From: a virus
Virus record (IMG/VR): IMGVR_UViG_3300046318_000171
Coordinates: 1-64,000 of that record
Reading direction: 5' to 3' (one strand)
Length of the DNA: 64,000 nucleotides
Every line of letters begins with the position of its first letter. Position 1 is the first letter of the stretch. A program made the translations under genes and the position numbers. The notes under the pieces are model-generated. The model saw nothing but the letters and a program-made list of their open reading frames with translations. It had not been told where the DNA came from and did no database searches. Positions 21,018-29,489 of this stretch are shown piece by piece.

Positions 21018-21092
21018 TGGCTGACCATCCAGGGGTCGAACCTGGGACCTTGGAGTTAACAGCTCCCTGCTCTGCCTCTGAGCTAATGGTCA
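21018..21092 (-). tRNA. tRNA-Asn (GTT)
   Basis: Acceptor TGACCAT/ATGGTCA + G + CCA; D arm GCTC/GAGC; anticodon loop CT-GTT-AA; T loop GGTTCGACCCC. Confidence 0.95.
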
Positions 21093-26076: not shown

Positions 26077-26208
26077 TTATGTGGATGGATAACACAGAGG
26101 CCAAGCCCACCTGCTCTTGCCCACGATGCCAGTGGAGCACAGAGTTGTGGACAGCGTATCTACGCACACGGGCAGGCGTGCCGACACAAACACGCACGCA
26201 CTAGACTA

Positions 26209-26268
26209 GGGCGAAACCGAGATGTGAAATCCTCGGTCGCTAGGTAATCTGCCTAGCCTGACGAGCCC
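26209..26268 (+). ncRNA. Type II hammerhead ribozyme
   Basis: GGGC-GAAA-CCGAG(loop)CTCGG-TC^-GCTAGG(loop)CCTAGC-CTGACGA-GCCC: all core nucleotides and three stems; GUC cleavage after 26238; intergenic. Confidence 0.9.
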
Positions 26269-26301
26269 GTCAGTTATGACCTACTAAAAAGGAGAAATCA
26301 A

Positions 26302-26463
26302 ATGGGTCGTAAGAATCACACGCACACCAAGCCTCAGGGACACAAGACCCGCAAGGCTGTAGCGGTATCAGTAGAAGCACCAGCACCACGCAAGCCAGCA
26401 CCAACTAAGGCGTTGCGTGTAGGTCAGGTATCTTCTGAGTGGCAGTCAAGGCGTGGTGCATAG
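26302..26463 (+). CDS. Small basic peptide (not in ORF track)
   Basis: AAGGAG RBS; MGRKNHTHTKPQGHKTRKAVAVSVEAPAPRKPAPTKALRVGQVSSEWQSRRGA. Confidence 0.6.
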   Translation: MGRKNHTHTKPQGHKTRKAVAVSVEAPAPRKPAPTKALRVGQVSSEWQSRRGA

Positions 26464-26610
26464 ATGACCACAGCCTACAAAGTCTTAGCGTATGCAGGAG
26501 TCGCAGTGATGTGGCTTGCTGTATTCGCAAGTGGTGTTGTGCCCCTTATCTTGGGTGCAACACTAGCGGGACTAGGCACAAGCCTAGTTCTAAGTCAACT
26601 AGATAAATAG
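26464..26610 (+). CDS. Small membrane protein (not in ORF track)
   Basis: 48 aa with two hydrophobic segments; abuts the previous stop. Confidence 0.55.
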   Translation: MTTAYKVLAYAGVAVMWLAVFASGVVPLILGATLAGLGTSLVLSQLDK

Positions 26611-26618
26611 GAGGAACA

Positions 26619-28382
26619 ATGCCAACTATCCCAGACCTAACGGTCGAAGATGTTGTCGCTGACCCACAAGTCGGTGTAAGTGTTCGGCATCTGCTGAACA
26701 ACTGGCGTGGGTCACAAGCCCGTTTGTCTGTCTATGGTAAGACAGACGCACGCATCCTTAGTGCAGCGTGGGACAGCCCACGTGATGTAAGTTCTAAGGA
26801 AGATGCAGTTGCTTTCGCTACTTGGATTACCAAGTTGTGGGACCACAGCAACCACATCACCAGCAACATTGAGTTGTTCTTGCCAATGCTGTCGTTGAAC
26901 ACAGACGATAGCGTGTCTATCCGCCACGCAGGTATCCAATCTACGTGGATGCGAGATGACATTGGCAACAGCGACATCATTCGCATCAAGGTAGATGCTA
27001 TCGCCAAGTTGTTTGGCGACCAAGCCAAGCTGCTGAGTTACGAAGAGTCGTCTGCACTCGGCTACAACAGCGACCGTGCAGTGTTCAGGTTCGTCAACAG
27101 CGACAAGTTTGCTGATGACTACATTGCAGACTCAAGTCAGCCGCTTATGGTTCGCACCAAGTGGTTGGCTGAGCGCAAGGCTTGGCAAGATGCAATCAGT
27201 GGTATAGGCTATTCGTCAGTGCAACCTACTGCTGACGGCAAGAGCCTGCTGTATGTGATGCCGTGCAACTCACGGTCGGTCAAGTCAATCGGCTTGTCAA
27301 TGTACCGCAGAGTTGCTGCTGGCATTGTTGGTATGAGCAATCGCCCAACATCAGCAGACCTCTGGCGTCACTTCCGCAACGAAGTCATTCGTCTAGAAGC
27401 ACGTGCCAATGGCACAGACGAAGCGGTGTTGCAGCAGCTCAAGTACAACAACTACGAGCAGTTCTGGTCCAAGATGAAGCAGGACAAGAAAGAGCGAGCC
27501 AAGGTTGTTGACCAAGCGGCTGTCGAAGCAATGTGGGCAACCATCCCAATTGCTGAAGCAGGCACCGAGTCAAGTCGTGGCTGGGGTATCGAAGTCGAGA
27601 CAGTTCGTGCTAACCAGACATCACGACCACGTGGTTGGGAAGATGTGTACGACGGCTCACTGCCAGAGTCCGGTGGTGGTTGCAACTGTGGTTGCGACGA
27701 CTGCTGCAATGGTGACCACTGCGACTACGAAGATGACGACTGCTTCGCCAACAGTGGTGGTGGTGAGTCAAGAGAGTTCGTCTCACCTATCCTGCGGTAC
27801 TTCAACAGCAATGGTCTGCGTCAGTTGTGCGGTGACCTTGGTGATGTCGAGCAATCTACAGCCCCAGGTATCCACGTTCACGTTGGTGCCGAAGACCTGA
27901 CAGTCACAGACGTAGCCCGTGTGCTGTTTGCCTATGGCGTAGTTGCTCCGTTCATCCAGCCGCTGTATCACCGCAAGGTGTTCGGTTACTGCCAAGAGAT
28001 GCCCGGCAACAATGTCCAGTGGTGGCTGACTGCTGCTAAGCGTCGTCTACAAGAGACAGGCAGAGTGCCACGACCTGCTGACATCTGCCACGAGCAGCCC
28101 GTCAACCGCTACCAAGATGTGAACACTCACGCCTTGGCTGCACACCAGACCCTAGAGTTCCGTGCTATGGGTCCGTTCTACAACTACGAGCACCTAGTCC
28201 GTTGGGCTTGGTTCTGCCGAGAGATGTTGAATGTATCCCGACTCAACCTAGACCAGCGTGTCTGGACTAGTTGCGAGTCACTCACTGATGTCATCAATGT
28301 ACTACGCAAGTATGGCTCAGAGTTCCCAACCGACAAGTCGCTGGCAGACACGCCAGCCGACACAAACACATACGAAGAATAG
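26619..28382 (+). CDS. Putative amidoligase (COOH-NH2 ligase, glutamine synthetase-like fold)
   Basis: 'WGIEVET', 'DGSL', 'REFVSPIL', 'GIHVHVG', 'RYQDVN', 'TLEFR' motifs of the putative amidoligase family; extra N-terminal ~310 aa. Confidence 0.85.
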   Translation: MPTIPDLTVEDVVADPQVGVSVRHLLNNWRGSQARLSVYGKTDARILSAAWDSPRDVSSKEDAVAFATWITKLWDHSNHITSNIELFLPMLSLNTDDSVSIRHAGIQSTWMRDDIGNSDIIRIKVDAIAKLFGDQAKLLSYEESSALGYNSDRAVFRFVNSDKFADDYIADSSQPLMVRTKWLAERKAWQDAISGIGYSSVQPTADGKSLLYVMPCNSRSVKSIGLSMYRRVAAGIVGMSNRPTSADLWRHFRNEVIRLEARANGTDEAVLQQLKYNNYEQFWSKMKQDKKERAKVVDQAAVEAMWATIPIAEAGTESSRGWGIEVETVRANQTSRPRGWEDVYDGSLPESGGGCNCGCDDCCNGDHCDYEDDDCFANSGGGESREFVSPILRYFNSNGLRQLCGDLGDVEQSTAPGIHVHVGAEDLTVTDVARVLFAYGVVAPFIQPLYHRKVFGYCQEMPGNNVQWWLTAAKRRLQETGRVPRPADICHEQPVNRYQDVNTHALAAHQTLEFRAMGPFYNYEHLVRWAWFCREMLNVSRLNLDQRVWTSCESLTDVINVLRKYGSEFPTDKSLADTPADTNTYEE

Positions 28383-28391
28383 GAGATACTT

Positions 28392-29489
28392 ATGTGTGGT
28401 ATCGCAGGCTTTAGCCTAAGTAAGACCAGCAAGATAAAACCTCGACAGTTGTCGAACGCTTTGCTGGGTGCAATCGAGGACCGTGGCGGTATGGCTTCGG
28501 GCTTCGCTTGGCAAGACAATGAGCATATGGGGTTCTACAAAGCAGCCGTCACCGGCTCTACCCTGTCGCTCAAGACAATGCCAAAGGATGTGCGTAATGT
28601 TATCTTGCACACCCGCCTAGCCACTCACGGCTCAACCAATGACAACCGCAATAATCACCCAGTGCTCTCGCCTAACGAGGACATTGCGTTGGTTCACAAC
28701 GGAGTCATTTACAACCACAACCAAGTACGCAATCAGTTGGGTATGACACTGCCAGATGTAGATACAAGTGTTATCCCTGCAATCATTGAGCAGCGTGGGC
28801 TTGACTCTATCAACGAGTTGGATGGTGATGCCGCAATTGCGTGGTTCAACCGCAAGGAGCACAACACTATGCACCTTGCACGCTACAAGCACTCACCGCT
28901 AGTTATGGCTCAGGTAGAAGACGGGTCATTCATCTTCTGCTCAACCGAGCAGTTGCTATGGCGTGTGCTTGTCAGTATGGACCTAATGCCAACGTGGATG
29001 GAGACAGCCAGCGAGCTGGACTACTTCACCATCCGTGATGGCGTAGTGATGAGCAAGTCGATGTTGCCTGAACCTAAGTACAACGACTACTCGTACGACT
29101 ACTCGTACTTCCGCCACCAGACAGCCGGTGCCAAGCCAAAGACTATCGGGTCTTCGTTTGCGTACTACGACGAGTGGGACGACGACTACACCCCGTATTC
29201 GTTCAACGGTAAGAACACCGACCGTGATGACGAGTTCGACAATGACGACGACTATGCCGAAGACGACTTCAACACTGACAATGTTGTGCCGCTCAATCGT
29301 GCAAAGTTCTACACCGTCATCTACGACACCATCATCAAAGACCACGAGTACATCTACTACTACGGCGACGAAGAGAAGACGTGGAAAGACGAGTTGTTCA
29401 TCTGGGCTAACGAGAACTACATCAAGTTAGTTGACTACGGAGTAATCGACAAGGGTGAGTTGCTCTCAACCACTGACGAGTTGTTCTAG
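28392..29489 (+). CDS. Class II (Ntn) glutamine amidotransferase with acidic tail
   Basis: N-terminal MCGIAG, 'HTRLATHG', 'NHP', 'HNGVI', 'VDT'. Confidence 0.9.
   Translation: MCGIAGFSLSKTSKIKPRQLSNALLGAIEDRGGMASGFAWQDNEHMGFYKAAVTGSTLSLKTMPKDVRNVILHTRLATHGSTNDNRNNHPVLSPNEDIALVHNGVIYNHNQVRNQLGMTLPDVDTSVIPAIIEQRGLDSINELDGDAAIAWFNRKEHNTMHLARYKHSPLVMAQVEDGSFIFCSTEQLLWRVLVSMDLMPTWMETASELDYFTIRDGVVMSKSMLPEPKYNDYSYDYSYFRHQTAGAKPKTIGSSFAYYDEWDDDYTPYSFNGKNTDRDDEFDNDDDYAEDDFNTDNVVPLNRAKFYTVIYDTIIKDHEYIYYYGDEEKTWKDELFIWANENYIKLVDYGVIDKGELLSTTDELF

Follow-up and report, generated by a model that had tools for sequence, protein, structure and literature searches.

Perreault et al. 2011 (PMC3088659) described type II hammerhead ribozymes that lie between the genes of phages, often clustered, and in prophages hammerheads of this type were found to flank genes, with clusters flanking single genes (PMC3088659). 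In Desulfovibrio vulgaris, three type II hammerheads cleave both in vivo and in vitro (PMC8782182). A biological role is still unproven for the thousands of hammerheads that phages and prophages carry. The site considered here lies on the plus strand at positions 26209-26268 of the window, by which is meant the first 64 kb of an uncultured virus record that is 91,238 bp long, complete and provided with direct terminal repeats. Since ribozymes of this kind have been known in phages since 2011, the site is a new example and introduces no new mechanism. It resembles the type II class of Perreault et al. and of Rfam family RF02276 in its short stem II and its intergenic position in phage DNA; in the RF02276 seed class, however, stem I is longer and loop I pairs with the 3' tail in a pseudoknot, whereas no more than 3 contiguous base pairs of this kind are available in the window. 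With the clustered prophage hammerheads and those of D. vulgaris it shares the appearance of an intergenic ribozyme inside a polycistronic phage-type transcript, as well as a biological purpose that is unproven; unlike them, it is solitary and known from sequence, whereas cleavage of the others has been measured. The reading favored here, which is held to be probable, is that a genuine compact type II hammerhead cuts itself within an early polycistronic transcript, the two halves of which would then decay independently, with the amidoligase message protected at its 5' end.

On inspection of the sequence, all invariant hammerhead nucleotides and all three helices are present in type II order. 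The 3'-side strand of stem II (positions 11.4-11.1, GGGC, 26209-26212) is followed by the core nucleotides G12, A13 and A14 (GAA, 26213-26215), which are invariant in alignments A1 and A3, and by the stem III hairpin from A15.1 to U16.1 (26216-26237), in which ACCGAG and CUCGGU form 6 bp closed by a 10-nt loop. Next comes C17 at 26238, which is not G and occupies the H17 position of the hammerhead consensus; GUC is invariant in both alignments, and the predicted cut falls between C26238 and G26239. The stem I hairpin (26239-26257) consists of GCUAGG paired with CCUAGC, 6 bp in all, plus a U-G pair and the loop UAAUCUG. It is followed by the core segment C3 U4 G5 A6 C7 G8 A9 (CUGACGA, 26258-26264) and the 5'-side strand of stem II (10.1-10.4, GCCC, 26265-26268), both assigned from the sequence and the descriptor match. 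Closing pairs at the core are A26216-U26237 (A15.1-U16.1), next to which stem III has a C15.2-G16.2 pair, and G26265-C26212 (G10.1-C11.1); the stems are 7-8, 4 and 6 bp long. Element order and the match to the type II descriptor make stem II the open helix. At the 5' flank stands GACUA (26204-26208), a signature that 18 of the 22 aligned members of the subfamily carry; its GAC can lengthen stem II by pairing with GUC at 26269-71 while UA is bulged, as is seen in the minimum-free-energy fold. The 3' tail is GUCAG (26269-26273), which together with C26268 can instead pair with the core at 26258-26263. A sequence-only reading of this DNA had proposed a complete type II hammerhead cut after C26238; the letters agree with that description base for base, and the ribozyme and the predicted cut position are both upheld by the sequence, the fold, a covariance model and a covarying subfamily.

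Descriptors were written for the type I, II and III permutations and applied to both strands of the whole 91-kb genome, in which the window site is the sole match to any of the three. In dinucleotide-shuffled genomes (n=200), type II sites numbered 0.025 per genome when loose stems (4,3,4) were allowed and were absent from all 200 at the observed stem lengths, while hammerheads of any type with stems of (4,4,4) occurred at 0.035 per genome. Folding of 26200-26275 gives the three-way junction as the minimum-free-energy structure (-27.8 kcal/mol, z = -3.0). By a rough estimate of our own, about 10 bare-descriptor matches could arise by chance across about 250,000 windows, which lends something to the reading of the site as a look-alike, decayed or arisen by chance, that is unable to cleave; as chance matches to the bare descriptor are possible at that scale, comparative evidence matters.

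A scan of the whole window with Rfam at curated cut-offs returned no hammerhead; the only match above cut-off is a tRNA at 21021-21092 on the minus strand (59.3 bits). RF02276 was likewise absent from the scan of a 301-nt slice and from the whole-genome search, and these misses in the wider scans are attributed to speed filters. On an 86-nt slice, RF02276 (Hammerhead_II) is the best Rfam family, matching 26209-26272 over the full model length with 23.2 bits and an E-value of 0.0039. The Rfam hammerhead models, to which the sequence-only reading had pointed as a check, thus name the expected family, but at a score under its cut-off of 37 bits, and this shortfall also speaks for a look-alike. 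The score is ascribed here to a difference in subclass: in other phage contigs, copies whose stem I is long and whose 3' tail reads AGCCA reach 41-58 bits with RF02276, and six compact sister copies on four contigs (L025, L039, L048 and L054) score 29.5-33.6 bits, all under the cut-off, so that annotation based on Rfam would miss them. Two other Rfam matches were set aside. The RAGATH-1 hammerhead gives a partial match of 13.6-14.5 bits that reflects only the GAAAC-stem III-GUC portion. The freshwater-2 motif (RF02980) gives 26.1 bits at 26240-26304 against a cut-off of 49.9, a match driven by the ribosome-binding site; its remaining matches in the genome are bare AAGGAG-AUG sites of about 17 bits, and the motif is unmentioned in the main text of Weinberg et al. 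2017 (PMC5737381).

The subclass becomes apparent when other viral contigs are considered. A first scan of viral contigs for the core and the inner three pairs of stem II yielded at least 120 stretches, and many contigs among the matches listed carry 2-8 full type II hammerheads. Two classes can be seen among the matches listed (L004-L123 and L140-L168). In the long class the stem I hairpin measures 21-25 nt, and in 93% of the matches listed loop I can form a pseudoknot of 4 bp or more with the 3' tail, whereas in the compact class the hairpin measures 16-20 nt and such a pseudoknot is available in 30% of them. The long class is the one that Perreault et al. 2011 described (PMC3088659). Judged by its sequence, the window site belongs to the compact class, which is abundant in uncultured viral contigs; its longest contiguous complementarity for the pseudoknot is 3 bp, short of the 4 bp that mark the seed class. 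By eye, a bulged pseudoknot of 3+3 bp can be drawn in the window, but it finds no support in the subfamily.

A second scan, which used only the loop I pattern and the core, led to a subfamily with the order GACUA, [A/G]GGC, GAA, stem III, C, a stem I loop of UAAYCUK, CUGACGA, GCCY and GUCAG. The window site carries this full signature, its loop I fitting the pattern GGUAAYCUKCC, and three of the elements (GACUA, the loop UAAYCUK and GUCAG) lie outside the minimal hammerhead motif. The signature is common to more than 20 copies in other phage contigs, with stems that differ by compensatory changes. Alignment A3 holds 22 subfamily members, the window among them; pairing in stems I, II and III is complete (100%), and double changes occur in 11 pairs: three of the four in stem II, four of the six in stem III and the outer four of stem I. 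With the flank extension included, 97.6% of cells of the whole tested structure are paired and 12 pairs show double changes. The observed score was matched by none of 500 shuffles and the slid controls were far off too, with the caveat that the members had already passed a descriptor requiring pairing. Stem covariation, the absence of which had been named in the sequence-only reading as grounds for abandoning the ribozyme, is present as compensatory changes in A3.

Individual compact copies in IMG/VR (L039, L048, L051, L054, L098, L144, L147, L149, L153, L154, L157, L158 and L161-L164) have the same architecture and signature as the window site. They differ in that several of their contigs hold at least two copies per fetched stretch, up to four in L147, where the window has one, and in that the stem III loop of the window site is longer and its ribosome-binding site is a classical AAGGAG.

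A covariance model, R1, was built from 51 compact viral type II hammerheads with the window left out. With this model the window site reaches 54.3 bits (E about 6e-16) and is the sole match in 64 kb, although the model's training set was gathered with a pattern taken from the candidate's own core and inner stem II, so that this share of the 54 bits is circular. Elsewhere in the genome, a 12-bit match at 65190-65254 is without the core CU and both stems and is judged to be chance. A look-alike that does not cleave would have to account for this score together with canonical nucleotides at all core positions, about 17 further subfamily-specific nucleotides beyond the demands of the descriptor, and an intergenic position exactly like that of family members. 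It is accordingly considered very improbable, even with the low Rfam score, the rough estimate of chance matches and the absence of the site from the relatives reached, described below, on its side.

The ribozyme occupies a 97-nt gap between a 41-aa ORF (26079-26204, plus strand), whose UAG stop at 26202-26204 ends 4 nt before the ribozyme, and a plus-strand block at 26302-29489 that encodes a 53-aa basic peptide, a 48-aa hydrophobic peptide, an amidoligase (26619-28382, plus strand, matching Amidoligase_2) and a glutamine amidotransferase (28392-29489, plus strand, matching GATase_6/7). The four downstream genes named in the sequence-only reading fit these ORFs, and the AAGGAG ribosome-binding site that it reported is found at 26289-26294, albeit 51-56 nt past the cut rather than about 60. 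The AUG of the 53-aa ORF at 26302 lies 64 nt past the cut and 33 nt past the ribozyme end. No promoter-like or terminator-like site was found beside the ribozyme on the plus strand, which places it inside a polycistronic transcript.

Among 190 listed members of the family, 61% have an upstream frame of 50 codons or more whose stop codon ends between -2 and +4 nt of the ribozyme start, and the median distance from the ribozyme end to the next start with a purine-rich site is 25 nt, compared with 33 nt in the window. Placement between a stop and a start codon, as in the window, is thus typical of the family, and the compact IMG/VR loci in particular resemble the window in having a stop codon at the 5' edge of the ribozyme. 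At the edge of stem II, members of the GACUA subfamily have UA[A/G], a triplet that is itself a possible stop codon. Positions 26202-26209 of the window hold two UAG triplets 5 nt apart (ACUAGACUAGGGC), the first of which closes the 41-aa ORF; the second corresponds to the subfamily stop-codon position (UAA/UAG) but stands in a different frame.

The arrangement suggests how the ribozyme would act. Once a plus-strand early polycistronic transcript has been made, the three-way junction would form and the RNA would cut itself between C26238 and G26239. Type II is, to our knowledge, the only permutation that leaves hairpins at both new ends, and as stem II is the open helix here, both ends produced in the window should be hairpins. 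The upstream RNA would carry a 2',3'-cyclic phosphate and terminate, 34 nt past the stop codon, in the stem III hairpin. The first nucleotide of the downstream RNA, 64 nt before the AUG, would be G26239, fully paired in the stem I hairpin and bearing a 5'-OH. In bacterial RNA decay, RNase E and RNase J favor a 5' end that is single-stranded and carries a monophosphate, and a paired 5'-OH end should therefore be protected. The amidoligase message would on this account present a poor substrate to RNases that depend on a 5'-monophosphate, and the two halves of the transcript would likely decay independently. The sequence-only reading had proposed that the RNA is cut ahead of the amidoligase genes to give them a hairpin-capped 5'-OH end, which may alter stability; this idea fits the anatomy and may reasonably be inferred from it. 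The copy is clean and solitary, and the boundary between genes at which it lies is a defined one.

The link between ribozyme and amidoligase, which the sequence-only reading had proposed to follow into related phages, did not hold in the relatives that were reached. No hammerhead was found at any of 13 viral and metagenome amidoligase loci (23-53% identity), where the best R1 score was 11 bits; the closest homologues of the amidoligase, P0002 (68%) and P0003 (59%), lie on contigs outside this set, and P0004 (74%) is without its N-terminus, so that its contig has no upstream DNA. Five whole records of amidoligase phages likewise contained no hammerhead and nothing above 16 bits by R1; the matches of about 16 bits in two of these records are weak and were judged to be chance. 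Among the five is a genome-wide syntenic relative, G005 (91,322 bp, with terminal repeats; L129 and L171-L175), in which many structural and replication proteins are 60-87% identical to those of the window phage while the amidoligase is 34% identical. In G005 different genes stand ahead of the amidoligase and the ribozyme is absent. Comparison of these two phages also indicates much faster turnover in the early region than elsewhere in the genome. DNA and protein searches of a cultured-phage collection returned no close relatives.

Absence from the syntenic relative would be expected if the ribozyme were a horizontally moving intergenic cassette, one that cleaves but plays no specific part in the expression of the amidoligase. 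The fetched stretches of sister-ribozyme contigs contain no proteins shared with the window phage, in keeping with such movement, and many sister copies precede leaders unlike the AAGGAG leader of the window. Against this, the ribozyme is present in a single copy in 91 kb, at the boundary between small early ORFs and the enzyme block, and a cassette of this sort is regarded as quite unlikely. The leaders in question are CA-rich in many of the sister ribozymes (L048, L147, L153, L154, L157 and L161-L164; for example ACACAAUCC). Set against the AAGGAG of the window, they hint that the subfamily spans phages of hosts with different translation-initiation signals.

A second helix competes with the active fold. 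The tail GUCAG and C26268 can pair with the core at 26258-26263 to give a CUGACG/CGUCAG hairpin of 6 bp with the loop AGCC. In the minimum-free-energy fold of 26195-26300, and in that of the 3' product, this core-tail hairpin replaces stem II. The active fold is predicted at -24.2 to -26.1 kcal/mol compared with -23.9 kcal/mol for a 5-bp version of the competing fold, while in the wider fold the version with 6 bp is the one favored; a considerable share of transcripts could hence adopt the inactive fold. Among the matches listed, 27 of 104 compact copies, a quarter of the class, have a perfect complement to C3-N7 no more than 12 nt from stem II, compared with 2 of 99 long copies and none of 203 5' flanks. 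The tail nucleotide covaries with N7 among the matches listed (Fisher p = 1.3e-4, a value that ignores relatedness): GUCAG accompanies CUGAC in 20 of 20 and AUCAG accompanies CUGAU in 7 of 13, and four of the six CUGAU copies without AUCAG have a G, which is able to wobble-pair with U. General extension of stem II by the flanks was no commoner than in permuted controls. A search of the papers at hand found no described core-sequestering hairpin in natural phage hammerheads, a result that is no proof of absence. Novelty at this locus, if any, lies in the competing helix and the embedded stop codon, and the helix, like the under-scoring by Rfam, is an incremental addition to a known subject.

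The core-tail helix may slow cutting, as a kinetic brake, or act as a lock once cleavage has taken place. Whether it forms after cleavage or competes with it, the pairing between GUCAG and CUGAC of the core would free the upstream product and prevent re-ligation. A further reading holds that the ribozyme is real but acts as a conditional switch, in which the tail pairs either with GAC of the 5' flank (active) or with the core CUGAC (inactive); cutting would then be set by timing or by whether the upstream ORF is being translated, and some of the transcripts would stay uncut. With a stop codon at the 5' edge of the ribozyme, terminating ribosomes would cover stem II. The close energies of the active and competing folds agree with such a switch, as do the enrichment of the core-complementary tail in the compact class, its covariation with N7, and the stop codon that abuts or overlaps the ribozyme start in the 61% of listed family members already mentioned. 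The same covariation, however, is explained by a helix that forms only after cleavage, and since GAC and GUCAG are nearly invariant in the window subfamily, the two pairings are indistinguishable there. A conditional switch is considered rather unlikely, and self-cutting of the early transcript is the preferred reading.

A more general idea may be put forward tentatively, as a possibility that falls well short of a favored view: that compact phage hammerheads free of the pseudoknot are bistable processing modules, with a stop codon in the 5' edge and a tail, covarying with N7, that refolds onto the core. If so, cutting would be timed or irreversible and the downstream message would gain a 5'-OH leader of several hairpins, three in the case of the window, with the third displaying the ribosome-binding site. 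The preference for type II in phage operons would follow from the hairpin that this permutation places on both new ends.

The 3' product is predicted to start with 80 nt (26239-26318) folded into three adjacent hairpins (z = -5.1), and none of 200 shuffles folded as well. The third hairpin, predicted from one sequence, carries the Shine-Dalgarno sequence in its loop: a 10-bp helix at 26274-26312 on the plus strand pairs 26274-83 with 26303-12, so that AAGGAG (26289-94) falls within a loop of 19 nt and UG of the start codon is paired. In this single-sequence prediction, the helix also pairs the codons just after the AUG of the 53-aa gene.
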